64,000 nt of DNA, from sequence record MW630116.1, one strand, 5' to 3'. The translations under genes were made by a program, and so were the position numbers. This DNA is from Escherichia phage vB_EcoM-ZQ3. This document shows positions 8,822-57,409 of the stretch, in pieces. Numbering within the stretch: the stretch's first letter is position 1; every line of letters begins with the position of its first letter. The notes under the pieces are model-generated. The model had not been told where the DNA came from. It did not search any database and saw only the letters and a program-made list of their open reading frames with translations.

Positions 8822-10804
8822 TTAACCACCTACAGCACCAATCAGTTCGTCGAAATCAGCACCAGTTGCTGTTGCTACAAAGTTCAACGTAATATAATTT
8901 ATCGAGCGGGAAGGTTGTAAGTAGAAAGTAGCTACAAATTCATTACGGTCGATAACTGCTGGGGTGTTATTGGTAGTATCACAAACAACTTTAAAGTTAT
9001 ATACACCACCGAGAGCTTTAATACCCTGTAGATATTGAGAAGTCTCTGTACGGAAAGAAGAACGGGTAAATGCGTTGTTCAATTCAAACAGGCGATATTT
9101 AGATGCTGAACCAATGTTCGTTTTAACCATATTGAACAAACGACGAACGTTAATACGGTCAAATGGTGAAGGAACGGAAGTGGCAGTTTTATCACCATAC
9201 AGAACATATCCATCACCGCCGGTACCAGTAACAGGGTTAATAGCTTCCTGATACAAACGATCACGTTGTGGTTGACGAGTTTCAATTGCAAGCTTAATAA
9301 CGTTAAGAATTTGTCCACGGTTATAACCGGCCGGAGACATCCAAGGCTGAGAAATATTGTCTGTGCGAGCACAAAGACCTGCAATATCAGCAGCTAACGG
9401 AACCCAACGATTCACGTCATTATATTTGTCATATTGATATTTATAGTTACCGTCAATAGCAGCATAAGTAGAACTTACATTAAAGTTATTATCAGTGTAA
9501 GTTCCTGATGCAGTACGCCAATCAACCAGATTATCAACTGCACGATTAACAGGAATACCGACTATAGTTGAACGTGGTGGTGAGCAAAGAACCAAGCAAT
9601 CTTGGCGAGAATCACCAATTGCTACAACATGTTTCTGAACTGTAGAAGCAACTTCTAAAGATTCACCTGCACAAGAACCGGCAATAAACAACTGCGCATT
9701 AACAGATTCGCGGTCAGCAAACAAATCCCAAGCTTCCATTAAATCACCAGCGTCAACCGTTTCATTAGATGATAAGCCACCACCCAGTTTGATTACGCCA
9801 GAGAAACCTTTTGGCCAACCTTGCGCAGTAGCGAAAATATAATTGCTTGCGCCTTTAGCAAAGAAATCATCAATGAAGATATTGCTACCATAAATATCTC
9901 GTTCACCACGTTTAGTAGAAAGAACTACGCTCTGGACTACAGCATCGTTACGACGAACGATAATTGCATATTGGTCATCAGTTTGTGGGCCATATCCAAA
10001 GATTGCTTTAGCAGTAGATGCACGAGTACCGCCATCAGGATAAATTTTTAACTGAGCTGAAGCACCTTTGTCATAGTCTGCTTTAGATACGATTTCAATT
10101 TCGAGCTGGTCGCCAAGTTCACCAGGATAAAGAGCAACTACGCCTGGGACACCATATTTTTTAATAGATTCTTGGAAAGTTAGAGAAGTAATAGCTTCTT
10201 CAGAAGTTTCAACTTCAGTTAACAGAATACCCGAATCGGTTACGATAGAACCAATTGTAATAACACCAGAAAGTCCAGAAGAAGAACTGGCAACTTCGGC
10301 GGTCCAATTAGAACCCAATGCCGGATATTCATTAATTTCTTTTGCACGAGCAATAATTTTACCGGTTGGGATGTAAATGTTAAGAATTTTACCATCGACA
10401 TCAACTGAAGTGACATAACCATCTGCTTCAACAGTTTCGGTCAAATACTTAACGATAATTTTATCACCAACTGCATAGTTACTACCAGTAGCAGAGATTG
10501 TGAATTCAATATTGCCTGCTACAGGAGATGAGTTCTTAGCAGTAGCACGATCAACTGCGCGTACAACACGAAGGTCATTACCATATTGAAGGAAGTTCAT
10601 AGCAGACATGAAATAATCTGCTGTATCCGTATTAGGAGTACCAAACATATCAACTAATGCAACTTCATCAGTGATTTGTTTAATCTGGAATGCCGGTCCC
10701 CATTGGAATTTTCCAGCCAGGGCAGCGGTACCAGTGGAGTTATTAACTACAGTACTCTGTACGGTAGTTTCTTTGAGCTCAACGCCCGGAGAGAGAAGTG
10801 CCAT
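8822..10804 (-). CDS. 18: tail sheath protein gp18
   Basis: 660 aa; length and synteny as T4 gp18. Confidence 0.95.
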   Translation of the reverse strand: MALLSPGVELKETTVQSTVVNNSTGTAALAGKFQWGPAFQIKQITDEVALVDMFGTPNTDTADYFMSAMNFLQYGNDLRVVRAVDRATAKNSSPVAGNIEFTISATGSNYAVGDKIIVKYLTETVEADGYVTSVDVDGKILNIYIPTGKIIARAKEINEYPALGSNWTAEVASSSSGLSGVITIGSIVTDSGILLTEVETSEEAITSLTFQESIKKYGVPGVVALYPGELGDQLEIEIVSKADYDKGASAQLKIYPDGGTRASTAKAIFGYGPQTDDQYAIIVRRNDAVVQSVVLSTKRGERDIYGSNIFIDDFFAKGASNYIFATAQGWPKGFSGVIKLGGGLSSNETVDAGDLMEAWDLFADRESVNAQLFIAGSCAGESLEVASTVQKHVVAIGDSRQDCLVLCSPPRSTIVGIPVNRAVDNLVDWRTASGTYTDNNFNVSSTYAAIDGNYKYQYDKYNDVNRWVPLAADIAGLCARTDNISQPWMSPAGYNRGQILNVIKLAIETRQPQRDRLYQEAINPVTGTGGDGYVLYGDKTATSVPSPFDRINVRRLFNMVKTNIGSASKYRLFELNNAFTRSSFRTETSQYLQGIKALGGVYNFKVVCDTTNNTPAVIDRNEFVATFYLQPSRSINYITLNFVATATGADFDELIGAVGG

Positions 10805-10831: not shown

Positions 10832-13157
<2,326 letters not shown>

Positions 13158-36133: not shown

Positions 36134-36173
36134 GTTTACATGCTGATAGGACTATGTTATAGTAGTCCTATCA
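36134..36173 (+). promoter_or_regulatory. early promoter cassette with palindrome
   Basis: GTTTAC then GATAGGACTAT/ATAGTAGTCCTATC inverted repeat. Confidence 0.5.
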
Positions 36174-40334: not shown

Positions 40335-40370
40335 GTTTACTTCTTCCCTAGTTGTGTTACTATAGTCCTA
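40335..40370 (+). promoter_or_regulatory. early promoter cassette
   Basis: GTTTAC-N17-TACTAT then conserved leader TTAAAACATGAGGAG. Confidence 0.5.
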
Positions 40371-41896: not shown

Positions 41897-42319
41897 ATGC
41901 GAAACCAAAATAATGATATTGACTCAATGTTCGAAGAGTTCCGAAATAAGGTAAATCCACCTACGTCTTTAGTTGATTCATTACGATATGTTGCAACTGG
42001 ACGTAAATGGTACTGGTCGTCTTCTTATGAGACAACTGAATATGCAAATAACCGAAAATCTTTATTAGCCCCAGGTATTATGATTCATGATATCGGAGCT
42101 ATTGCTAAACTAGTTGCGGACCATGATATTAGATTCACTGATTTCGTTGCTCCTACGTGGTCTGTTTGTTGTTTAAACACTGAATGGGACTATATCAGTG
42201 AACGCTCTGAAGATTATTATGGTTTTAGAGATAAGCTCTTAAGGTCTAACATGTTTTATATCGATACTGAAGTTCTAGTCGATAATAAAATATTACTTTA
42301 CGTTAATCGTCGATTCTGA
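41897..42319 (+). CDS. hypothetical protein
   Basis: 140 aa from MRNQNNDIDSMFEEF; RBS AAAGGAG. Confidence 0.5.
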   Translation: MRNQNNDIDSMFEEFRNKVNPPTSLVDSLRYVATGRKWYWSSSYETTEYANNRKSLLAPGIMIHDIGAIAKLVADHDIRFTDFVAPTWSVCCLNTEWDYISERSEDYYGFRDKLLRSNMFYIDTEVLVDNKILLYVNRRF

Positions 42320-46694: not shown

Positions 46695-47006
46695 GTGAAA
46701 CATATTTGCCAAGAATTTAAAATCGACCAGCCAGCAGGTATTATCGTGAACAGATACATTAATGGATATCAACCTATCGATGAAGTAATACGAACAACTC
46801 AAGCTGAGCTTGAAAAGTTTTTCAATAAGTGCCAATGGATAACAGGATGGATTATATTTGTACCGTCTATATGGTTTTTCAGTACTAAGGTGAGTTCTTT
46901 CGGTTTTGTTGATATTATTGCTATCTTATTAGCATCTAGTATCATAAGTGTTGTTGGTGGCATCATTGGCGGCGGTACCGCCGCCATCATTATTAAATCT
47001 TATTAA
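46695..47006 (+). CDS. hypothetical membrane protein (GTG start, uncertain)
   Basis: 103 aa; Gly-rich hydrophobic C-terminus; no convincing RBS. Confidence 0.35.
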   Translation: MKHICQEFKIDQPAGIIVNRYINGYQPIDEVIRTTQAELEKFFNKCQWITGWIIFVPSIWFFSTKVSSFGFVDIIAILLASSIISVVGGIIGGGTAAIIIKSY

Positions 47007-47091
47007 AAGTAGTTTACAAGAACATAAAGCCAAGATAAAGGCCAAGAATAATGAAGTTGAACGTTTTATTACCGAATGCAGGAATTTGAGA

Positions 47092-47327
47092 TGAGTATAG
47101 CAATTTACATTAAATCAGAATCATGTGATAGTTATCTGTACACATACGATAAAGACGTGTCAGAAGAAAAAATCAAAGACGATCTTAATATGGACCTTGA
47201 TATGTTCTGTCCTATTGCAGATTACAAACTTGCGGTCTCTAATAGTGAAAGTCCATCTAAAGAAACGCGCATTGAAGAATTTATGTCCGAATTAATGGCT
47301 AAATCATGGGACCGAGATGATGAGTAA
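47092..47327 (+). CDS. hypothetical acidic protein
   Basis: 78 aa from MSIAIYIK; RBS AGGAATTTGAG. Confidence 0.45.
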
Positions 47328-47774
47328 GAAAAATAAAGTGAAAGAACTATCAGCCGGTATTATTTTCCTTACCGAAGATAAAGAATTATTCATGGGGCGT
47401 GTAACTGGTTCTCGTCCTAAAGGTTCTTTAGCTCATCGGTGGGATATTCCTAAAGGACGTGTCGAGCCCGCCGAATCTCCTATTGAAGCCGCTATTCGCG
47501 AATGCGAAGAAGAAACTGGGTTTACACAATATGACCTGCCTTCCTGAAAGACCTAGGTGAACATCATTACTCAGACAATAAGAATATTCATCTGTTCCTA
47601 TATACCATCCCTGTAGAGCACGAGCAATTCAGAAACAGTGTTTGTAATTCCTATCATACATTCCCAGACGGACGACAGATTCCTGAATTTGATGCATTCG
47701 CTTTAATTAAACCTTCTCAATGGGAATATGTAATGGGCAAATCATTATATAAGGTGCTCACTACCCTCCTATAA
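47320..47774 (+). pseudogene. nudE: Nudix hydrolase NudE homologue interrupted by a -1 frameshift near 47535-47545
   Basis: N-terminal 74 aa with Nudix box GRVEPAESPIEAAIRECEEETG ends at TGA 47545; C-terminal 77 aa continue in the -1 frame to 47774; sum 151 aa equals intact T4 NudE. Confidence 0.6.
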
Positions 47775-47808
47775 GTAATAAATACCTCCTATAAACGTGG
47801 GAGGTATT

Positions 47809-48297
47809 ATGAATATATTTGAAATGCTTCGTAATGACGAAGGTCTTAGACTGACTTTATACAAAGACACCGAAGGCTTTTGGACGATTGGCATAGGCCA
47901 TTTAGTAACAAAGAACCCGTCTTTAGCCGTAGCTAAAGCTGAACTTGACAGAATGATCGGTCGTAAATGCAACGGTACAATTACCCTTGATGAGGCTGAA
48001 AAGCTATTTAATGAAGACGTTGATAAAGCCGTTCGCGGAATCTTGGGTAATGCTAAACTTAAACCGGTATATGATTCTTTAGATGCAGTTCGTCGATGTG
48101 CATTGGTCAATATGGTCTTCCAAATGGGTGTAGCAGGCGTCGCAGGTTTTACTAATTCTCTTCGTATGCTTCAACAGAAACGTTGGGATGAAGCGGCAGT
48201 AAATCTAGCCCAATCTAAATGGTATCGTCAGACACCTAATCGCGCGAAACGCGTAATCTCAACATTTAAAACAGGAACTTGGAAAGCGTATATATGA
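47809..48297 (+). CDS. e: lysozyme (endolysin)
   Basis: 162 aa from [31 protein letters not shown]; catalytic Glu11/Asp20/Thr26 context conserved as in T4 lysozyme. Confidence 0.95.
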
Positions 48298-48575
48298 AAA
48301 CATATAGTGAATTTTTATCAGAATCTATTCTTAACGAAGCTACTGACACATTTGCAACTAAGCTAGGTGCAGCTTTGGTTGAAGCTGAAAGTCTATTAGC
48401 ACGTATTTCTGAACTTGCTAGTAAGATAGATACTCGCAAATTTGAGCGCACCAGTGATATCGTTAAGCTTGAAGCCTTGTTGCGTATGTGTGATAAACCG
48501 GAAGAAATCGCTAAGAACGGCTCGCTGATGAAACAACGTCTTGAAAAATATATTTCAGGCGCTTCAGAAAAATAG
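48294..48575 (+). CDS. internal protein-like protein with capsid-targeting N-terminus
   Basis: 93 aa from [11 protein letters not shown]; ATGA overlap with e stop. Confidence 0.6.
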
Positions 48576-48576
48576 T

Positions 48577-48615
48577 GTTTACTTCCTCCAAGGGTTTTGA
48601 TACTATACATTCATC
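48577..48615 (+). promoter_or_regulatory. early promoter cassette
   Basis: GTTTAC-N18-TACTAT; spacer CCTCCAAG pairs with downstream CTTGGAGG containing the denV SD. Confidence 0.5.
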
Positions 48616-48633
48616 AACTACTTGGAGGAAATT

Positions 48634-49047
48634 ATGACTCGTATCAATTTAACACTTGTTTCTGAACTGACCGACCAACATCTTATGGCTGAGTATCGTG
48701 AATTACCACGCGTATTTGGTGCAGTCCGTAAACATGTTCAAAACGGTAAACGTGTAAAGGATTTTAAAATCTCCCCGACATTTATCTTAGGCACAGGTCA
48801 TGTAACATTCTTTTACGACAAACTCGAATTTTTACGTTTACGTCAAATCGAGCTAATCGCTGAATGCTTGAAACGTGGTTTCAAAATCAAGGACACGACT
48901 GTCCAAGATATTTCCGACATCCCTGCCGAATTTCGTAATAATTATGTCCCGTCCGAAGCGTCCATTGCGATAAGTCAAGCACGCTTAGACGAAAAAATTG
49001 CTCAACGTCCTACTTGGTACAAATACTATGGTAAATCAATTTACTAA
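48634..49047 (+). CDS. denV: endonuclease V (pyrimidine dimer DNA glycosylase)
   Basis: 137 aa from [34 protein letters not shown]; matches recalled T4 DenV. Confidence 0.92.
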
Positions 49048-49078
49048 GGAAAAAGGTTGCGATGGTAAAGCTTAAACA

Positions 49079-49118
49079 GTTTACGCTTAAGTATTAATAT
49101 GGTATAATTACTCTATCA
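49079..49118 (+). promoter_or_regulatory. early promoter cassette (-10 TATAAT)
   Basis: GTTTAC-N18-TATAAT. Confidence 0.5.
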
Positions 49119-49138
49119 AAACAAACAAGGAAACAAAA

Positions 49139-49441
49139 ATGAAAACATATCAAGAATTTATTACTGAAGCGCGAGTGAGTGCAGGTAAATTAGAAGCCGC
49201 TATAAATAAAAAGGCCCATTCATTTCACGATTTGTCCGATAAAGACCGTAAGAAACTTGTAAGCCTTTATATTGACAAAGAGCGTATTCTCGCTCTTCCT
49301 GGCGCTAATGAAGGTAAACAGGCCAAGCCTTTGAATGCTGTTGAAAAGAAAATTGATAACTTTGCTTCTAAATTCGGTATGTCTATGGATGACCTTCAGC
49401 AAGCGGCTATCGAAGCAGCTAAAGTAATTAAAGGTAAATAA
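49139..49441 (+). CDS. internal protein (IPII/IPIII-like)
   Basis: 100 aa from MKTYQEFITE-ARVSAGKLEAA; canonical capsid-targeting sequence. Confidence 0.7.
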   Translation: MKTYQEFITEARVSAGKLEAAINKKAHSFHDLSDKDRKKLVSLYIDKERILALPGANEGKQAKPLNAVEKKIDNFASKFGMSMDDLQQAAIEAAKVIKGK

Positions 49442-49443
49442 CA

Positions 49444-49485
49444 GTTTACTTTCTCCTAGAATTGTGATAGTATAATCATAATTAC
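49444..49485 (+). promoter_or_regulatory. early promoter cassette followed by decayed 3-codon ORF
   Basis: GTTTAC-N21-TATAAT then RBS GAGAGG and ATG ACT CGA TGA (49499-49510). Confidence 0.4.
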
Positions 49486-49713
49486 TTGGAGAGGTAAAAT
49501 GACTCGATGAAAAAATTTTAATGAAGCCACACTGGTATAAGTATTAAGGCAAAAATATTTACATTCAAATAACATGGGAACAAGCTGGACCTCATGATTC
49601 TATGAGGGATTCCCGCCAACCTGTAATAAGGTCGAGCCCAAGTGCGGTAATGGGTAAATACAGAAATGGACAATTCATGTGCCATGGAATGGCCCAAACT
49701 TAGAGAGAACAAA

Positions 49714-50253
49714 ATGAAAACATTTTTAACTGGACCTTATCTATCCCTGATGAATGCTTTTACACACCATTCTGATGCTAGAGTAGAAGAAATTTGTAAG
49801 AACGGTTATGTCCCACCATTTGAAGACATACTCAAGCAGTACTGTACACTTCGTTTAGACGGTGGCAGACAATCAGGTAAATCCACTGCAGTAACTAATT
49901 TTGCTGCTAATTGGCTGCACGACGATGGAACAGTTATTGTTCTTTCTAATACTTCAGCTTATGCTAAAATTTCTGCTGGCAACATTAAAAAAGAATTTTC
50001 TCGTTATTCTAGCGATGATATTCGATTCCGTTTATTTACTGATTCTGTCCGTAGTTTTATTGGCAATGAAGGTTCTAAATTCCGTGGATTAACGCTTTCT
50101 CGTATTCTATACATAATTGACGAGCCTATTAAAGCTCCTGATATGGATAAGATTTACAATGTCCATATTAAATCAGTACAGCACTGCTGCAAAAGCAAAT
50201 ATTGCATAGGCGGTACTGCTCGTCCTCAATTTTTTGTGATTGGAATGCAATGA
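49714..50253 (+). CDS. P-loop NTPase-like protein
   Basis: 179 aa from MKTFLTGPY; Walker A GGRQSGKST. Confidence 0.55.
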   Translation: MKTFLTGPYLSLMNAFTHHSDARVEEICKNGYVPPFEDILKQYCTLRLDGGRQSGKSTAVTNFAANWLHDDGTVIVLSNTSAYAKISAGNIKKEFSRYSSDDIRFRLFTDSVRSFIGNEGSKFRGLTLSRILYIIDEPIKAPDMDKIYNVHIKSVQHCCKSKYCIGGTARPQFFVIGMQ

Positions 50254-50558
50254 TGACCACTATTGAAGTTTTTGAGTATTGTTATAACAGTCCAGTATGC
50301 AATAAAAGGGCTCTTGTAGAAAATTACGAGATCTACCATTTTAAACCTAAACGATATCGTTTGACTAAAGGTCCGTTCGCAGGTCAGCAGGTTCTTTGTA
50401 CTGCTCCTAATGCACGGTTGATGACTAGTATTCCGCATTTCAAAATGGAATTTATTGATGGGCCATTTAAGGGATTAATCACTCAAAGTTTAATGGCGTT
50501 TAATTCCGACCCATTTTTGATTAAAGAAAAATCTTGGATAAATTTATTTTCTAATTGA
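50250..50558 (+). CDS. hypothetical protein
   Basis: 102 aa; ATG overlaps upstream stop. Confidence 0.5.
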   Translation: MMTTIEVFEYCYNSPVCNKRALVENYEIYHFKPKRYRLTKGPFAGQQVLCTAPNARLMTSIPHFKMEFIDGPFKGLITQSLMAFNSDPFLIKEKSWINLFSN

Positions 50559-50564
50559 GGTTAT

Positions 50565-50927
50565 ATGAAAGCATATCAAATTCTTGAAGGCACACACAAA
50601 GGCACTATTTATTTTGAAGACGGTACTCAAGCCCGGATTATTGTCTCTAAGACTTTTAAAGAAGACGCTATTGTAGACCCGGAAATTTTCTACGGTTTGA
50701 ATGCCCGTGAAATTGAAATTGAACATCAACCTAAAGTTAAAATTGAAGGTGGTCAACACCTGAACGTTAATGTTCTGCGTCGTGAAACTCTGGAAGATGC
50801 AGTTAAGCATCCAGAAAAATATCCGCAGTTGACCATCCGTGTATCCGGTTATGCAGTTCGCTTTAACTCTCTGACTCCGGAACAGCAGCGCGACGTTATC
50901 GCTCGTACCTTTACTGAGAGTCTATAA
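50565..50927 (+). CDS. autonomous glycyl radical cofactor (GrcA/YfiD-like)
   Basis: 120 aa; C-terminal glycyl-radical motif [27 protein letters not shown]. Confidence 0.75.
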
Positions 50928-51151
50928 TGGCTAAATTGATTATAGAAGGGTCTGAAGATGTTTTAAAATGTTTTGCCGCCTGGTTTAGTTGCTCAGGCGA
51001 GCAATCATTCATTGAAGCATTTAGAATGGGTGATATTACTGGAAACTATCCGGCAACTGATATCACTGTACGTGGATATGGTATTAATGAGCCTATCCAA
51101 TTGGTCGAATATGACCTTGCCACTGATGAGGAAATTCCTTATGTCGATTGA
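50927..51151 (+). CDS. hypothetical protein
   Basis: 74 aa; ATGA-type overlap with upstream gene. Confidence 0.45.
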   Translation: MAKLIIEGSEDVLKCFAAWFSCSGEQSFIEAFRMGDITGNYPATDITVRGYGINEPIQLVEYDLATDEEIPYVD

Positions 51152-51407
51152 AGATATTAAAGGCTACAAGCCACATACCGACGATAAAATCGGTAAAGTG
51201 AACGCTATTAAAGATGCAGAAGTCCGTCTTGGATTGTTGTTTGATGCTCTGATTGAAGAAGCATATATCTTGAAAGAAAATGAAACAGAGCAACAAACCA
51301 AAGAAGATATGGATGCAGTACAGGCTCTTAAGTATGCTAAGCAACATCTAAAAGAAGCCAGCATGTGGGCCTGTCGTGCAGTATTTCGACCTGAGGAAAA
51401 ATACTAA
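51141..51407 (+). CDS. hypothetical protein
   Basis: 88 aa from [10 protein letters not shown]; longer alternative-frame ORF start rejected. Confidence 0.45.
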
Positions 51408-51706
51408 TGGCTCAAATCCTATCAGGCTTTGGAACTCATTATGAATCATCTAGACGCATAACTGAAAGCAATCCTTTTGGCCTTGTTCCGAAGCACAAAA
51501 AAATTCAAAGCCTTGATGACTTTGAGAACCGCCTATGGGCCCTCTTTAATGAGTACAAGGCATATCTGAAAGAAGACGCTGACGATTGTCTTGAAGAAGA
51601 TGAGATTGCGTATTACGAACAACGCCTTGAACAGCTCAAGAACTTCCACCAGGTTCGTGACGAAGTATCTAAAGCAGTTAAAAAGTTAATTCCTTTCAAA
51701 GAGTAG
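51407..51706 (+). CDS. hypothetical protein
   Basis: 99 aa, acidic helical. Confidence 0.5.
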
Positions 51707-51745
51707 TTTACTTCTCCTCTAGATGTGTTACTATAGACCTGTCAA
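51706..51745 (+). promoter_or_regulatory. early promoter cassette with anti-SD arm
   Basis: GTTTAC-N17-TACTAT; CTCCTCTAG (51714-51722) is perfectly complementary to CTAGAGGAG (51746-51754) containing the SD. Confidence 0.5.
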
Positions 51746-51762
51746 CTAGAGGAGAAATCAAA

Positions 51763-52221
51763 ATGACTATCAATTCAGACGTTTTTATCCGCCGCAATAA
51801 ACTCCGTCGAATCTTTGAAACGGAGTTCCGCAAAATAAATGCCAGTATAAAAGATGCTGCAAAGTCTCTTGGACTACCAGGCTTTCATATCAAGTATTCT
51901 CAACATCTCTTAGATCGTGCCATCCAGAGAGAAATAGATGAGAACTACGTTTTTGAATTATTTCGTAAAGTAAAAAATCATGTTAAAGAAGTTGCAGAAT
52001 TTTTATCAATGCCGGCACGTCCGGATGTTGATGAAGATTTTGTCGAAGGCGTCGAATATCGCCCAGGCCGTTTAGAAATAACTGATGGAAATCTTTGGTT
52101 AGGACTTACAGTTTGTCGCGAAAATCCAGCATTCAAAATGAAGACTCTTCAATGCAGAATGGCTATTATTAACAGTAAACGACTACCAGGAAAAGCTTCT
52201 AAAGCAGTGATTAAAATCTAG
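51763..52221 (+). CDS. regB: RegB-like site-specific endoribonuclease
   Basis: 152 aa; N-terminus MTINSDVFIRRNKLRR and C-terminus RLPGKASKAVIK as recalled for T4 RegB; position between denV and tk. Confidence 0.6.
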   Translation: MTINSDVFIRRNKLRRIFETEFRKINASIKDAAKSLGLPGFHIKYSQHLLDRAIQREIDENYVFELFRKVKNHVKEVAEFLSMPARPDVDEDFVEGVEYRPGRLEITDGNLWLGLTVCRENPAFKMKTLQCRMAIINSKRLPGKASKAVIKI

Positions 52222-52229
52222 AGGTAAAC

Positions 52230-52772
52230 ATGAGAAAAGCACTACTCGCTGGTCTATTTGCTCTTTCATTATCAGCACATAGCTCCGAGCATACTTTTAG
52301 TAATGTCCAACTCGATAACTTGAATTATGCTTATCAGTTTGGGGAACAGTTTTCTAAGGACGGAAAATTTAAAACGCATGAAAATATGCATAAGAAAGGA
52401 CTTGGATACATAATGGCCGCAATACTATGGCAGGAATCATCTGCTGGTATTAATCTTAAAGATAAGAAAGGTCACCATGCGTATGGAATGTTCCAAAATT
52501 ATCTACCAACAATGAGGGCAAGAATTAACCAGCTTGGTTATAATATGTCTGATGCCCAAATTAAGAAAATGCTATCTAAGCGGTCTAATTCAGCCAGATG
52601 GGCTTATATCGAATTTTCTTATTGGTTAAATATACATAACGGGGATATAAGAAAAGCTATATCCTCATATAATGCGGGATGGAAGACAAGTGCTGGAAGT
52701 AAATATGCTTCTGAAGTCCTAGAAAAGGCTAATTACCTTAAATCAAATAAACTACTGGAAATAAAAGAATGA
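52230..52772 (+). CDS. secreted lytic transglycosylase-like protein (SLT domain)
   Basis: 180 aa; signal peptide; SLT motifs ILWQESS, YGMFQ, SYNAGW. Confidence 0.6.
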   Translation: MRKALLAGLFALSLSAHSSEHTFSNVQLDNLNYAYQFGEQFSKDGKFKTHENMHKKGLGYIMAAILWQESSAGINLKDKKGHHAYGMFQNYLPTMRARINQLGYNMSDAQIKKMLSKRSNSARWAYIEFSYWLNIHNGDIRKAISSYNAGWKTSAGSKYASEVLEKANYLKSNKLLEIKE

Positions 52773-53116
52773 CCAAAATGTTGGCTTTAATAGTTGGCTT
52801 GGTTTCATTTAACGCTCTTGCTAATACTACATATACTGATGTAACGGAGTATACAAACAGAACAGCGTCTGATTATTGTGGTAAAAGTCAAGAGTGTAAA
52901 GTAGATTTTTCACAAAAATTGTTATATGCGTATAAAGACGGAGAAAAAGATGGGGCGTCTAGTAGGTTCAAGGCGTCTACCTTAATTAAAAGATACTATA
53001 AAAAATGGCAAATATTAGAATGCTCGGTGGCGGAACCTAAAGATAAGGCAGCATGCAATTCTATGGTGGACCGTCTAGTTGACTCTTATACTAGAGGACT
53101 TGCAGCAAGTGATTAA
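52769..53116 (+). CDS. secreted protein
   Basis: 115 aa; signal peptide MTKMLALIVGLVSFNALA; four Cys. Confidence 0.5.
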   Translation: MTKMLALIVGLVSFNALANTTYTDVTEYTNRTASDYCGKSQECKVDFSQKLLYAYKDGEKDGASSRFKASTLIKRYYKKWQILECSVAEPKDKAACNSMVDRLVDSYTRGLAASD

Positions 53117-53576
53117 AAACTATATCAAGGGCGATATTGTCGCCCTGTTTTCTAAAGGTAATAATATTGCTCATGGGTGTAATTGTTTTCATACAATGGG
53201 CGCCGGTGTGGCAGGACAATTAGCAAAGGCTTATCCAAAAATTCTAGAAGCCGATAAACTTCAAACCGAATTCGGAGACGAGTCTAAACTCGGGACTTAT
53301 TCGGTTTATGAAAAATATTTTAAGACCCACAAAGCTTATTGCTTTAATCTTTATACGCAGTTTGAGCCGGGACCTAATTTTGAGTACTCTGCTTTAATGA
53401 ATTGTATAATAGAATTAAATAAATTCGGAAAGAATAAGATAACAAAGCCTGTAATTTATATGCCAAGAATTGGTGCAGGTATCGGTGGTGGAAACTGGGA
53501 CGTCATCGAAGAGATTTTAGATACGTATTCCACTAAACTAGAAATTGTGATTGTTGATTGGGAACCATTATTATGA
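53109..53576 (+). CDS. macro domain protein (ADP-ribose binding/hydrolase fold)
   Basis: about 155 aa, GTG start inferred from RBS spacing; motifs IAHGCNC..MGAGVAGQL and PRIGAGIGGG match macro-domain signatures. Confidence 0.7.
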   Translation: MIKNYIKGDIVALFSKGNNIAHGCNCFHTMGAGVAGQLAKAYPKILEADKLQTEFGDESKLGTYSVYEKYFKTHKAYCFNLYTQFEPGPNFEYSALMNCIIELNKFGKNKITKPVIYMPRIGAGIGGGNWDVIEEILDTYSTKLEIVIVDWEPLL

Positions 53577-53785
53577 ATATACATTATCCACATCCATATG
53601 ACCCAAAGAATAAGGCAGTAATTATTCGTCAATGGGAACGCATTTGTCGTACCAAATGTCCAATTAATAGTCCACATGATGTAGATAAAGACTACATCGG
53701 AACATTCGTTGAATATACTTTTATCGATAAGAAAGGCCGTAAACAACATGTAGAAGAATATTGCTTAAAGGTGACATGGTTATGA
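53573..53785 (+). CDS. hypothetical protein
   Basis: 70 aa from MNIHYPH; ATGA overlap; Cys/His-rich. Confidence 0.45.
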   Translation: MNIHYPHPYDPKNKAVIIRQWERICRTKCPINSPHDVDKDYIGTFVEYTFIDKKGRKQHVEEYCLKVTWL

Positions 53786-53967
53786 GTTTAAGTAAAGAAC
53801 AAAAAGACAGACTGTTTTCTCTTATTCACGAAGTTATGGATAAAAATAGTGAATTGGAAAAAGTTTGCGATGAATGCGGTCCTTTTAATACCGACGAATA
53901 CGAAGAACTGTGTAAAGATTTCGACGATAAAGAACAAGAACTTATTGATTATATAAATTCCTTATGA
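53782..53967 (+). CDS. hypothetical protein
   Basis: 61 aa from MSLSKEQ; acidic. Confidence 0.45.
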   Translation: MSLSKEQKDRLFSLIHEVMDKNSELEKVCDECGPFNTDEYEELCKDFDDKEQELIDYINSL

Positions 53968-54161
53968 TTACTCGCGAACAAAAGAATGAAATACGATTTT
54001 TAATCAGCGAAATTATTAGTTTAGAACGAGATTTATCTTTTGAATTGGCTTCGGATTATGGAGATGCTGAAACATACTACGAATTAGTAAAATCTATCGA
54101 TAAAGCTGAAAATGATTTAGAAACATATTTAGAAAATTTAACTAAGGACTCTTATGGCTAG
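53964..54161 (+). CDS. hypothetical protein
   Basis: 65 aa; ATGA overlap. Confidence 0.45.
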   Translation: MITREQKNEIRFLISEIISLERDLSFELASDYGDAETYYELVKSIDKAENDLETYLENLTKDSYG

Positions 54162-54735
54162 TTTAATTTTTACATATGCCGCTATGAACGCTGGTAAGTC
54201 TGCTTCATTACTTACTGCCGCACATAACTATAAAGAACGTGGCATGGGTGTATTAGTTCTTAAACCGGCTATTGATACTCGCGATTCAAAAGGTGAAATA
54301 GTCTCTCGTATTGGTATTCGTCAGGACGCCAATATAATTACAAAAGACATGGATATCTTTGAATTCTATAAATGGGCTGCAGCACAAAAGGATATTCATT
54401 GTGTATTTGTTGACGAAGCTCAGTTCTTAACTACTGAAAAGGTGTATCAACTTAGTCGTATTGTTGACGTATACAATGTGCCGGTAATGGCATATGGACT
54501 ACGAACAGATTTTAAAGGTAATCTATTTGAAGGTTCTCAAGCATTAATGGCTATTGCCGATAAGCTTGTTGAACTTAAAGGCGTCTGTCATTGTGGTAAA
54601 AAGGCCACAATGGTAGCTAGAGTCACGGAAGACGGACTTCCAATTACAGATGGCAGTCAAATTGAAATTGGTGATACTGATAGATATGTGTCATTATGCC
54701 GGAAGCATTGGAATGATTTGACAGGGTTGTTATAA
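54154..54735 (+). CDS. tk: thymidine kinase
   Basis: 193 aa; P-loop MNAGKSAS; Zn ribbon CHCGKKAT...LCRKH; same length as T4 Tk. Confidence 0.92.
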   Translation: MASLIFTYAAMNAGKSASLLTAAHNYKERGMGVLVLKPAIDTRDSKGEIVSRIGIRQDANIITKDMDIFEFYKWAAAQKDIHCVFVDEAQFLTTEKVYQLSRIVDVYNVPVMAYGLRTDFKGNLFEGSQALMAIADKLVELKGVCHCGKKATMVARVTEDGLPITDGSQIEIGDTDRYVSLCRKHWNDLTGLL

Positions 54736-54762
54736 ATACTAATATCTAACCAAGAGGTATAT

Positions 54763-54975
54763 ATGCAGCAATTAAACGAAAGACAACTTCGTAATCTTAC
54801 TGTAACCCAACTGGATGAAATCCGAAGAGAATTAGGACATTCTATTTCTCATTTAAACGAGGATATCCGTCAAACTGGTTCTAAAGCTGATTATACACGC
54901 AAGCGCAAGCTGGAAAAATACCTCACAGATGTTAAGGCCGTCCAAAGGCGAAAAATAAATACTGGCCAAAATTAA
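54763..54975 (+). CDS. hypothetical protein (rI.1 position)
   Basis: 70 aa basic protein between tk and rI. Confidence 0.5.
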
Positions 54976-54987
54976 CAGGAGGCCTAT

Positions 54988-55290
54988 ATGGCCTTAAGAG
55001 CGATAGCTGTCATGGCGATGCTGGGGTTTTTTGCAGCAACAACTCCTATCGTTGGTACTGCGTACACCGACCCATATTTTGATAACTTTATGGAATCAGG
55101 GATTAAAAACGTATATACTTTGTTTGAAATTCAAAATGTCGAGAATTCTGAAAAATTCTATAAGTATATGGCAAAGCATTACAAAAATAGCCCCTGTGAT
55201 GATGCATTTGAATGTCATGAACAAGGCATAAAAACTGCCAGACAATTTGCCGAGTTCATGAAAATAAAATTAGAGCCTACATCTATCTAA
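54988..55290 (+). CDS. rI: lysis inhibition regulator RI (antiholin)
   Basis: 100 aa; signal-anchor then DPYFDNFMESGIKNVYTLFE...CDDAFECHEQG as recalled for T4 RI. Confidence 0.85.
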   Translation: MALRAIAVMAMLGFFAATTPIVGTAYTDPYFDNFMESGIKNVYTLFEIQNVENSEKFYKYMAKHYKNSPCDDAFECHEQGIKTARQFAEFMKIKLEPTSI

Positions 55291-55296
55291 TTTAAT

Positions 55297-55326
55297 AGCC
55301 CCTTCCTTATGGTTGGGGCTTTTTTG
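55297..55326 (+). terminator. intrinsic terminator
   Basis: AGCCCCTTCC-TTAT-GGTTGGGGCT then TTTTTTG; near-duplicate of terminator at 39589. Confidence 0.55.
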
Positions 55327-55335
55327 CATTTAGCA

Positions 55336-55375
55336 GTTTACTTCTCCTCAGGTTGTGTTATAGTAGTCCTTACTT
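55336..55375 (+). promoter_or_regulatory. early promoter cassette with anti-SD arm
   Basis: GTTTAC...TTATAGTAG; TCTCCTC in spacer complementary to GAGGAGA at SD. Confidence 0.5.
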
Positions 55376-55391
55376 ACTAGAGGAGAACGTT

Positions 55392-55571
55392 ATGTCACGT
55401 AAAGAAAAAATTTCTAAGTTAATGTTTTTGATTGAAGAGTACGCTAATGCGGTATCTGATTGGGAAAATGCTCATGGTTGCGAAGATGGAGACATCGACA
55501 TTAACAGAGCTATGAAAAAGATGGCTGATACGCACACCGAATTGCAAATGTATGTTAACGAGATTATGTGA
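55392..55571 (+). CDS. hypothetical small protein
   Basis: 59 aa from MSRKEKISKL. Confidence 0.45.
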   Translation: MSRKEKISKLMFLIEEYANAVSDWENAHGCEDGDIDINRAMKKMADTHTELQMYVNEIM

Positions 55572-55578
55572 GGATATT

Positions 55579-55743
55579 ATGCTTTACGATTATACTGGAA
55601 AATCTGAAGACGGTGTACTTGAACTTTTACCTGAAAGCGCTGAAGATGATATGGTGGTGATATATTGTGTTGGTTGTCAATCAATGCATGATGAAATTTT
55701 TAAACGTGAACCAAGAAACTGTTGGCACAGGAGCATGAGATGA
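55579..55743 (+). CDS. small Cys-rich protein, paralog A (MLYD..SEDGV)
   Basis: 54 aa; RBS GAGGAT. Confidence 0.4.
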   Translation: MLYDYTGKSEDGVLELLPESAEDDMVVIYCVGCQSMHDEIFKREPRNCWHRSMR

Positions 55744-55834
55744 TTTATTATCTTGAACCTTGGGCTTGGTTAACAATGGCTGTAGGACCTGTTTTAATTG
55801 GTTTATTCTTTTCATGGTTAGCGAGGAAACTGTA

Positions 55835-56050
55835 ATGTTATATGACCCAAGCGGTTGTTCTGAAGATGGTGTGATTGTTCTGGAGCCTGAGCATCCAGTT
55901 GGTGATGTATATCGCACCGTTGAAGTATGCGAATGTAATTTCGTTGAAGGTAATACTGGCGGAATTTCCATTGAGCAAGATGATGATGTTATTTACCTGG
56001 ATGCAAGCCAAGTAGAAGCTCTTTATAGCATTTTAAAACATAATCGGTAG
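55835..56050 (+). CDS. small Cys-rich protein, paralog B (MLYD..SEDGV)
   Basis: 71 aa; RBS GAGGAA; shares N-terminal MLYDxxGxSEDGVxxLxPE with paralog A. Confidence 0.45.
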   Translation: MLYDPSGCSEDGVIVLEPEHPVGDVYRTVEVCECNFVEGNTGGISIEQDDDVIYLDASQVEALYSILKHNR

Positions 56051-56090
56051 TTTACGTCTTGGTAGGACTATGATATAGTAATCCTACCAA
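56050..56090 (+). promoter_or_regulatory. early promoter cassette with palindrome
   Basis: GTTTAC then GGTAGGACTA/TAATCCTACC inverted repeat. Confidence 0.5.
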
Positions 56091-56214
56091 AACAAATGGA
56101 GAACAAAATGAAACTTTTGCTTATCGCTTATGTTGTAGTACAATACAATTATCCGATGTTTACTTATAACATGGTAAACGGCATAGTGAATCTTATTGAA
56201 ACGAGTATGGTAAA

Positions 56215-56394
56215 ATGACCCGTGAACAAGCTAATAAATTGATGGACCTTATCCGTGACTTACGTGAAGCCGATTCAGATTTGAGTGATGTAGCTTATCA
56301 TGCGGTAAATGATAACGGAGACTTTTATGAAAATCAGGTTGATGCTTGCCAGAATGCTTTGGTGAATTTTGTTGAAACTTTAATTGGTGAATAA
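56215..56394 (+). CDS. hypothetical small acidic protein
   Basis: 59 aa from MTREQANKLMDLIRDL. Confidence 0.4.
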   Translation: MTREQANKLMDLIRDLREADSDLSDVAYHAVNDNGDFYENQVDACQNALVNFVETLIGE

Positions 56395-56395
56395 T

Positions 56396-56926
56396 ATGAA
56401 AACTGTAATTGAAACAACCGAGTTGTTTGGTGATTTATGTATCGAAAAACGTGGTTATGTGTATGTTCTGACACAAGAAGATGATGCTGCTACTATTCTT
56501 CCTATGGAACTGGACAAGATTTTGAAACTCAATCCACCAGGTCATGCATCTGTAATTAACATTAATGAAGACCTTCAAGTTCGTTTTTATCATGGACTTT
56601 ATAGTGGGGTTAATATCGAAACTGAAGACGAATGTTTTTCTATTAATAATTGGAAAACATTCGTCACTAAGGTGAAAGAATTCGTGGAATCTGAAACAGC
56701 CAAAAAGGCCAAACTTCAATGGGCTAAATGCCGTAATGCTTTTATTACAAATCCGGCCAACCCTGTCTCTACAACGGTCTTAGGCGTTAATCCTTCTTAT
56801 GAAGATGGTGATGTCGTAGTTATTCGTCAAATTGATGACCTTCGTCAACATATCATTACATTAGACAAAGATGAAGCAGTTGCTCTTAAAGCTTATCTTG
56901 ATTCTATTATCCCGACTTTGAAATAA
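56396..56926 (+). CDS. hypothetical protein
   Basis: 176 aa from MKTVIETTELFG. Confidence 0.5.
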   Translation: MKTVIETTELFGDLCIEKRGYVYVLTQEDDAATILPMELDKILKLNPPGHASVININEDLQVRFYHGLYSGVNIETEDECFSINNWKTFVTKVKEFVESETAKKAKLQWAKCRNAFITNPANPVSTTVLGVNPSYEDGDVVVIRQIDDLRQHIITLDKDEAVALKAYLDSIIPTLK

Positions 56927-56935
56927 GGAATTATT

Positions 56936-57409
56936 ATGATTATCAATGAAAACTCTTGGCACTTTAAAATTTATGCCGCGTTCAATAGTACATGGAATCG
57001 TCCGAAAACGTTGTGTGCTTATTTTTGGAAAACGTTAATCCCGGTATTGGCTGTTTCAATTATTGGATTTGCGATTTTAGCAGCAGTAACAATCATTGGC
57101 CAAGAAATTTTAACTAGATTCTTTGTTTTTAGCAGTCTATGGACATTAGTTCCGGCCTCAATTGGTGTAGGCATTTTAATGGTAGCAGTCATGGCTTTTA
57201 TTTCTGCCGGGTTGGTAATTGGTCCGTCTTGGTTGTTAGACAAATATAACGACAGAAAATATTATAAAGAAATTGAGCTCATTGCGCGAAACCAAGAACG
57301 AATTAAAAATGGACTTGAGCCTATTGAACGTAAGAAATCATTAATAGGTGAATACCTTAAAGCTCGTAAAGAAAAAATCTGTCCTACTCTTGAATATAAG
57401 GCTAAATAA
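56936..57409 (+). CDS. membrane protein
   Basis: 157 aa; three hydrophobic helices. Confidence 0.5.
   Translation: MIINENSWHFKIYAAFNSTWNRPKTLCAYFWKTLIPVLAVSIIGFAILAAVTIIGQEILTRFFVFSSLWTLVPASIGVGILMVAVMAFISAGLVIGPSWLLDKYNDRKYYKEIELIARNQERIKNGLEPIERKKSLIGEYLKARKEKICPTLEYKAK

Follow-up and report, generated by a model that had tools for sequence, protein, structure and literature searches.

Complementarity between early promoter spacers and downstream Shine-Dalgarno sequences in a T4-like coliphage, and its predicted effect on the translation of read-through transcripts

The DNA analysed in this study, in the following referred to as the window, comprises 64,000 nucleotides (nt) of Escherichia phage vB_EcoM-ZQ3 (accession MW630116.1) and shows 98-99% identity to T4-like coliphages of the RB69/Mosigvirus type (vB_EQ1, SHSML-52-1, ATK47). 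The subject is the early promoter cassette which precedes regB, the gene of a sequence-specific endoribonuclease, together with similar cassettes upstream of denV and of an open reading frame (ORF) starting at position 55392. Coordinates are window positions unless another genome is named, and the cassettes itemized below are located on the plus strand. The regB locus contains the following features:

51407-51706, plus strand: upstream ORF; according to the ORF list and the sequence, it ends with the stop codon TAG (51704-51706), which shares its G with the -35 hexamer
51706-51711, plus strand: -35 hexamer GTTTAC of the T4-type early promoter before regB, pattern GTTTAC-N17-TACTAT
51712-51722, plus strand: 5' arm TTCTCCTCTAG (anti-Shine-Dalgarno) in the promoter spacer, predicted to be untranscribed from the own promoter; forms a stem in the minimum free energy (MFE) and centroid folds
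51729-51734, plus strand: -10 hexamer TACTAT, preceded by TGT (extended -10); predicted transcription start at about 51741, within the hairpin loop
51746-51756, plus strand: 3' arm CTAGAGGAGAA with the Shine-Dalgarno (SD) sequence GAGGAG; GGAG at 51751-51754 doubles as RegB cleavage motif
51763-52221, plus strand: coding sequence of regB, present as an ORF and annotated as regB in ATK47 and other Mosigvirus records

GTTTAC is the -35 consensus of the T4 early promoters (PMC1524935), and the promoter before regB, GTTTAC-N17-TACTAT, is of the sigma-70 type found at T4 early genes (PMC1524935, PMC2988021). The first part of its spacer is fully complementary to the SD region: TTCTCCTCTAG (51712-51722) and CTAGAGGAGAA (51746-51756) form 11 of 11 Watson-Crick pairs. 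An earlier reading, made from the sequence only, had proposed a pairing of 9 base pairs (bp) between 51714-51722 and 51746-51754; this pairing is correct and lengthens to 11 perfect pairs. The same reading had pointed to equivalent arrangements upstream of denV and of the ORF at 55392, which are composed as follows:

48577-48633, plus strand: denV cassette, with the -35 hexamer at 48577-48582, the 5' arm TTCCTCCAAG at 48583-48592, the -10 hexamer TACTAT at 48601-48606 and the 3' arm CTTGGAGGAA at 48621-48630
48634, plus strand: ATG of denV, 3' of the denV cassette
55336-55391, plus strand: cassette before ORF 55392, with the -35 hexamer at 55336-55341, the 5' arm TTCTCCTC at 55342-55349, the -10 hexamer TATAGT at 55359-55364 and the 3' arm GAGGAGAA at 55380-55387

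Upstream of denV, TTCCTCCAAG pairs with CTTGGAGGAA over 10 of 10 bp. The complementarity and the 5' arm proposed for denV were thus found again, and the 3' partner had to be moved two bases to the left, to 48621-48628. The helix before ORF 55392 (TTCTCCTC with GAGGAGAA, 8 of 8 bp) is likewise present and is longer than had been claimed. In these three cassettes, whose spacers are N17 or N18, the 5' arm occupies the first two-thirds of the promoter spacer and leaves the TG-containing bases beside the -10 hexamer free. The loops of the SD-hiding hairpins have a length of 23-28 nt.

Transcription starts were deduced from the -10 consensus (for regB, 7 nt past the -10 hexamer), which places those of the other two cassettes at about 48613 (denV) and 55371 (ORF 55392), and the folding of the hairpins was evaluated by z-scores against 200 dinucleotide shuffles. 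In the cassettes at 51706, 48577 and 55336, the -10 hexamer and the predicted start lie between the two arms, in agreement with the proposal that promoter-started transcripts lack the 5' arm. RNA reading through from upstream was predicted to fold with -17.3 kcal/mol for regB (z -3.19; 2 of 200 shuffles as good) and with -19.1 kcal/mol for denV (z -4.06; none of 200 as good). A comparison of the read-through hairpins with shuffled controls had been named by the sequence-only reading as a check; the hairpins of regB and denV proved more stable, and only that of the 55336 cassette was not significantly so. The leaders which begin at the predicted starts reached only -2.1 to -2.9 kcal/mol and were less structured than their shuffles (z +1.1 to +1.4). 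As a positive control, the gene e hairpin present in the window (47781-47791 with 47798-47808) yielded -16.3 kcal/mol and a z-score of -3.94; the read-through hairpins of regB, denV and a further cassette at 49444, described below, match it in stability.

The predicted accessibility of the SD sequence, given here as the probability that the four bases of its core are unpaired, changed in the same direction. It amounted to 0.571 for regB RNA from the predicted start, 0.24 for the promoter-initiated denV leader and 0.60 for the own leader of ORF 55392, and dropped to 0.000, 0.000 and 0.003, respectively, on read-through RNA, as would be expected if read-through transcripts hide the SD sequence in the manner that had been suggested. 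For 44 distinct SD-hiding cassettes the mean was 0.00 on read-through RNA versus 0.54 on the own transcript, and promoter-less genes showed a mean of 0.40. A scan of positions 47000-57000 with Rfam 15 revealed no covariance-model match at E <= 1.

The early promoter pattern GTTTAC-N16-18-TAnnnT occurs 22 times in the window, compared to 7.7 expected matches. Sixteen of the cassettes are complete, consisting of promoter, a leader of approximately 20-30 nt, SD sequence and ATG, and they show mutual identities of 60-83%. When the spacer of each of these 16 cassettes was paired with its own leader, mean stems of 6.6 bp and mean duplex energies of -11.5 kcal/mol were obtained, versus 5.1 bp and -8.3 kcal/mol when spacers and leaders of different cassettes were combined; none of 5000 permutations reached the values of the own pairs. 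With shuffled spacers, the longest stem had a mean length of 4.4 +/- 0.95 bp.

For the analysis of conservation, regB and denV loci were gathered from IMG/VR, and the whole T4 genome was included. The pairing occurs in T4, JS98, Citrobacter phage Merlin, Serratia phage CHI14 and an Enterobacter phage near CIP9, among others. About 24 of 34 distinct regB cassettes possess an SD helix of at least 8 bp, built from at least 8 different arm sequences. In T4 the regB helix is formed by TTTTCCTCTTGACTG and CAGTTAAGAGGAGAA (15 bp including 2 G-U pairs); further arm pairs of regB orthologues are TTTCTCCTCTTTATG/CATAAAGAGGAGAAA, TCTCCTGTAAG/CTTACAGGAGA, ATCTCCTTTTAGT/ACTAAAAGGAGAT and ATCCTCATTTG/CAAATGAGGAT, beside others. 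The variable flanks of the regB arms change jointly (TAG/CTA, TTGACTG/CAGTTAA, TTTATG/CATAAA, TGTAAG/CTTACA, TTTTAGT/ACTAAAA and ATTTG/CAAAT), and AAG/CTT is a further co-varying flank. The denV orthologues show the arm pairs TCTCCTGTAG/CTACAGGAGA (T4), TCTCCGTTTG/CAAACGGAGA and TCTCCTGTG/CACAGGAGA. In the denV cassettes of several phages the 5' arm is shifted to the -10 end or the discriminator, still before the predicted start, and the 3' arm remains the SD sequence, as exemplified by GATGTCTTCC/GGAGGACATC of Serratia phage CHI14. In addition, T4 has an SD helix at ndd.4, alc, alt.-3, nrdC.8, motB.2, 30.8 and modB.

MAFFT alignments of the orthologous cassettes lose the register of the sliding arms, and RNAalifold detected no pairs in them. 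For this reason, permutation tests and an alignment based on a covariance model were used instead. In the permutation tests, for which each cassette variant was represented once, the own regB arms reached a helix score of 20.9 versus 13.6 for crossed arms (observed value reached in 0 of 20000 permutations), and for denV a p-value of 0.007 was obtained. The covariance model was derived from eight ungapped cassettes, and 117 hits were aligned to it. In this structure-aware alignment 88% of the cells are paired, compared to 73.6% after shuffling and 37-54% in slid controls. All 11 pairs vary on both sides, and the covariation score of 0.323 exceeds those of the shuffles (0.138; 0 of 500 as high) and of the slid controls (at most 0.071).

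The helix is also associated with the class of the promoter. Across 38 genomes or loci, a strong SD-covering helix was found at 24.6% of the gene starts with a GTTTAC early promoter, versus 2.9% of those without. Considering only T4 and the window, 10 of 41 genes with an early promoter have the helix, compared to 7 of 212 without (Fisher p = 4e-5). T4 e, 49 and I-TevII, which are known cases, are among the few positives without an early promoter, and their recovery validates the scan. The end of the 5' arm falls either 9-16 nt short of the end of the -10 hexamer or at -1 to +2. It was never located in the transcribed leader, but this is a weak point, as the short leader offers little room.

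A scan for terminators on the plus strand between 49100 and 51706 yielded one weak site only (50209) and none directly upstream of the regB cassette. As no terminator lies in between and the upstream stop codon overlaps the -35 hexamer, transcription from upstream should enter the regB cassette. The same is expected for the SD-hiding cassettes as a group, because the upstream stop codon abuts the -35 hexamer (median gap 4 nt) and terminators are rare (8%). These properties do not discriminate between the groups, since the other cassettes have upstream terminators in 14% of the cases and an identical median gap.

These observations suggest the following mechanism. RNA polymerase started upstream would copy both arms, the SD sequence would emerge facing its complement, and the hairpin would close. 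On such a long RNA the gene would neither be translated nor be cut by RegB at its GGAG. RNA from the own promoter would begin in the loop, without the 5' arm, and its ribosome-binding site would be open. RegB requires GGAG in single-stranded form, and structure inhibits the enzyme (PMC3014915, PMC1702504); therefore, the helix should shield this motif on long RNAs. Since the internal promoter is of the early class, regB, denV and like genes would be translated from their own early promoter alone, so that synthesis would be confined to the first minutes of infection. On the longer delayed-early or middle RNAs these genes would be silent, although still transcribed. For regB, this model fits a published remark, according to which the gene is driven by a typical early promoter that shuts down at 2-3 min and the nuclease requires tight regulation (PMC3014915).

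The analysis confirms the complementarity and its excess over chance, its compensatory maintenance, the association with early promoters and the predicted difference in folding. From these and from the deduced start positions we infer that the hairpin would also form in vivo and would block translation and RegB cleavage, with the consequence for timing outlined above. It is fairly probable that translation and RegB cleavage are limited to promoter-proximal early transcripts by the SD-hiding hairpin.

Several findings weigh against this interpretation. About 10 of the 34 distinct regB cassettes lack the helix, which is consequently not obligatory. The hairpin of the 55336 cassette (-13.5 kcal/mol, z -1.09, 28 of 200 shuffles as good) is not significant on its own. 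Just upstream of this cassette lies a terminator-like hairpin (GCCCC...GGGGC followed by T6, 55298-55325), which was overlooked by the simple terminator scan due to its loop of 12 nt and because of which read-through into the cassette is expected to be low; the cassette behind it has the weakest hairpin of the three described above. Another cassette, at 40335 (TTCTTCC versus GAGGAGAA), looks similar but showed no significant fold (z +0.77) and was dropped as a member. The loops, with their 23-28 nt, are long, and the helix might be opened in part by a ribosome that terminates on the upstream ORF, 6-8 nt ahead of the 5' arm. Furthermore, the covariation counts overstate the number of independent events, because the alignment was fitted to the structure and contains reverse-strand hits and repeated cassette families; despite the inflated counts, the direction of the covariation signal is clear. 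The asymmetry of G-U over A-C combinations, meant to separate selection on the sense RNA from selection on the DNA, was 33 versus 11 in a first, non-symmetric count. In the symmetric count it was 42 versus 28, at a baseline of 1.27:1 (p = 0.29), and the strict internal mismatches comprise 3 G-T versus 4 A-C.

These counts do not separate the two levels of selection. The inverted repeats might act as hairpins or cruciforms which aid the recombination shuffling the cassettes, as proposed for the PeSL (promoter-early stem-loop) cassettes of T4-like phages, and the overlap with the SD sequence would then be incidental. Recombination at PeSL cassettes is documented (PMC2839356, PMC4122927), and signs of exchange occur here as well, namely the denV and regB cassettes of JS98 with 93% identity and the first 8 nt of denV behind the 49444 cassette. 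However, the SD sequence always provides the 3' arm, and the 5' arm is found in the spacer in some phages and in the discriminator in others, as SD occlusion predicts and a recombination signal does not. Long loops of 23-28 nt disfavour cruciform extrusion, homologous recombination between cassettes requires direct rather than inverted repeats, and the varying arm sequences exclude a sequence-specific protein site, so that we regard a role on the DNA level as distinctly unlikely. For the same reason, an operator of a sequence-specific repressor, formed by an inverted repeat around the -10 hexamer, was ruled out: the arms co-vary rather than stay conserved. A mere coincidence of a pyrimidine-rich spacer with a purine-rich SD consensus would account for the CTCC/GGAG core, which matches by composition, and for the 5 bp already found in cross-cassette pairings. 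It is refuted by the co-varying flanks, by the permutations (0 of 5000 and 0 of 20000) and by the collapse of the slid controls, and deserves hardly any credence. The stem-loops might also attenuate or terminate upstream transcription, as proposed for PeSL stem-loops, one of which (from RB49) lowered the expression of a downstream reporter (PMC2839356). The stems described here have loops of 23-28 nt and are followed by A-rich GAGGAGAAAUCAAAAUG instead of a U run. Intrinsic terminators are GC-rich short-loop hairpins with a U run, and the terminator scan gave no match at these sites; this function is very improbable.

Two further explanations accept the helix in the RNA. The hairpin might have been selected mainly to guard long transcripts from RegB, with translational silence as a by-product. 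Most middle transcripts are RegB-resistant, 16 resistant GGAG sites of T4 lie in stable structures (PMC3014915, PMC1702504), and GGAG is present in nearly all 3' arms found. The latter is uninformative, however, since GGAG is the commonest SD sequence in T4. In addition, T4 denV has the helix, yet its GGAG, which lacks an A-rich 3' context, is resistant anyway (PMC1702504), and protection is therefore not the reason for the helix at this gene. Protection from RegB and restricted translation share all structural evidence and differ only in the consequence that was selected; we consider protection as the primary cause unlikely. Alternatively, translation could be coupled: the SD sequence would become free once a ribosome completing the upstream ORF had melted the 5' arm. 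The distance from the upstream stop codon to the 5' arm is 6 nt at regB and 8 nt at denV, and the short median distance between stop codon and -35 hexamer would suit such a coupling. But cassettes without a helix have the same short gap, which thus reflects genome compaction. Moreover, the usual reach of a terminating ribosome would probably open only the first 2-3 of the 11 pairs, the 55336 cassette has no abutting ORF, and a similar geometry at T4 gene e results in about 100-fold repression (PMC3014915). Coupling is accordingly quite improbable, and the restriction of translation to promoter-proximal early transcripts is preferred here.

The idea of the sequence-only reading that the promoters belong to mobile cassettes is supported by near-identical cassettes before unrelated genes. 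In JS98 (L025), the denV and regB cassettes (9945-9998 and 12253-12306) are 93% identical, and in T4, alc (136336) and alt.-3 (123093) share one cassette with a G-U-rich SD helix of 15 bp. Copying or conversion of whole cassettes would be consistent with these sequences. A fourth cassette of this kind was detected in the window:

49444-49498, plus strand: cassette with an outer helix, in which the spacer sequence TCTCC (49452-49456) and its flanks pair with GGAGA (49488-49492), and an inner hairpin around the -10 hexamer

Its nested helices fold with -20.2 kcal/mol (z -5.62; none of 200 shuffles as good). It is followed by an ORF of three codons, ATGACTCGATGA (49499-49510), whose first 8 bases are identical to the start of denV. 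In the T4-type contig L039, a cassette of the 49444 type precedes an intact denV. The 49444 cassette with its remnant of a denV start looks like a footprint of cassette-mediated recombination. A different arrangement was observed about 60 nt upstream of denV in four jumbo-phage contigs of 345-380 kilobases (L044, L046, L050 and L052). There, the promoter overlaps a GC-rich hairpin with a T run (AAGGGTTGACTTCGGTCAGCCCTTTTT...TATAAT), which corresponds to a terminator fused to the -35 region, a composite design unlike that of the SD-hiding cassettes.

Two other sites in the window were conspicuous. In the cassette at 2437-2499, the -35 hexamer GTTTAC itself (2437-2442) is complementary to GTAAAC (2488-2493), located directly 3' of the SD sequence GAGGAG, and both are paired in the MFE structure of the read-through RNA. 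Due to this complementarity the reverse strand reads as a pseudo-promoter with a spacer of 20 nt (2462-2493). The gene start at 41897, which has no early promoter, shows an SD-covering helix of TTAACTCTTT and AAGGAGTTAA with a score of 21.

For the timing of gene expression in phages, T4 serves as the reference system. It is conceivable, but doubtful, that the use of non-transcribed promoter DNA (spacer, -35 region or discriminator) as the 5' arm on read-through RNA is a general rule of the early cassettes of the Tevenvirinae. If it were, SD hiding would affect roughly one cassette in four, including those of the genes for host-directed enzymes such as RegB, Alc, ModB and DenV, and translation of these genes would be strictly immediate-early. 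Such a rule would help to explain the additional conserved or structured positions in early promoters, the sharp drop in early protein synthesis once the early promoters stop, and the RegB resistance of GGAG sites on longer transcripts. The shut-off of early proteins and the selectivity of RegB are still incompletely understood (PMC3014915, PMC2988021). With a quarter of the early genes built in this way, the immediate-early pulse would largely be hard-wired in cis, in units of about 60 bp which can be moved between genes. This would be relevant to the annotation and engineering of T4-like therapeutic phages, in which a gene put under such a cassette, or one whose cassette promoter is removed, would then be altered in its translation and not only in its transcription. 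The principle is familiar to T4 specialists; its systematic use in early promoters across several genera and T4 would be new.

The regB SD sequence is already known as a regulatory target, since RegB cleaves GGAG of its own message (PMC3014915). This autoregulation concerns the same SD sequence but acts on the exposed form in promoter-proximal RNA, whereas the helix described here would hide that GGAG on longer RNA, a situation which is not described in the RegB reviews searched.

With regard to their composition, the cassettes resemble the PeSL cassettes, which are compact repeats of an AT-rich region, a strong sigma-70-like early promoter, a stem-loop, an SD sequence and a start codon between small early genes; signs of exchange among cassettes may be a further point in common. 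The published PeSL stem-loops are located between the -35 and -10 hexamers, over the -10 hexamer or just upstream of the promoter, and they were interpreted as terminators or attenuators and as recombination sites; the motif given for PST/T4 is AGNA-loop-TCNT (PMC2839356, PMC4122927). Here, by contrast, the 3' arm is the SD sequence 30 nt downstream, and the stems have neither a U tract nor a match to a terminator. Pairing with the SD sequence is mentioned neither in the text of the 2010 PeSL paper (Arbiol et al., PMC2839356) nor in the part of the 2014 paper (Comeau et al., PMC4122927) that was covered. Stems of the published PeSL type also occur in the window. In seven other cassettes (35779, 36134, 36466, 43990, 45282, 56050 and 60219) the spacer pairs with bases just past the -10 hexamer, so that the latter lies in the loop and both arms precede the predicted start. 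An example is TGATAGGACT (36144-36153) with AGTCCTATCA (36164-36173) in the 36134 cassette, whose hairpin folds with -18.0 kcal/mol (z -4.67). Among paralogues, compensatory changes were observed in these stems as well (GATAGGA/TCCTATC versus GGTAGGA/TCCTACC).

The closest functional counterpart is the T4 e class. A helix which sequesters the SD sequence, combined with an internal promoter, controls T4 e, soc, 49 and I-TevI and mobE of Aeh1 (PMC3014915, PMC2330249), and the design of T4 e is also found at I-TevII and I-TevIII. In the window, the gene e start (47781-47811) is sequestered by AATACCTCCTA and TGGGAGGTATT, and late-promoter-like TATAA motifs are located in and before the 5' arm. 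SD sequestering by early promoters may be new as an application of the e/soc mechanism in PeSL-type cassettes; no prior description was found in a search that did not extend to the older T4 literature (e.g. Liebig & Ruger 1989). As in the e class, the SD sequence is predicted to pair with an upstream complement on long transcripts, and the promoter lies in or beside the 5' arm, so that the own transcripts would lack this arm and be translated. The loops are longer (23-28 nt versus 4 nt in gene e), and it is the -35/-10 spacer itself that serves as the 5' arm. The logic known from e and soc, to which the sequence-only reading had likened the cassettes, thus holds for the sequestering design, whereas the class of the promoter differs. 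Genes of the e class have a late (gp55; TATAAATA) or middle (MotA box) internal promoter, with early silence followed by late expression. The cassettes described here possess a sigma-70 early promoter instead of a late or middle one, and the opposite timing is predicted for them.

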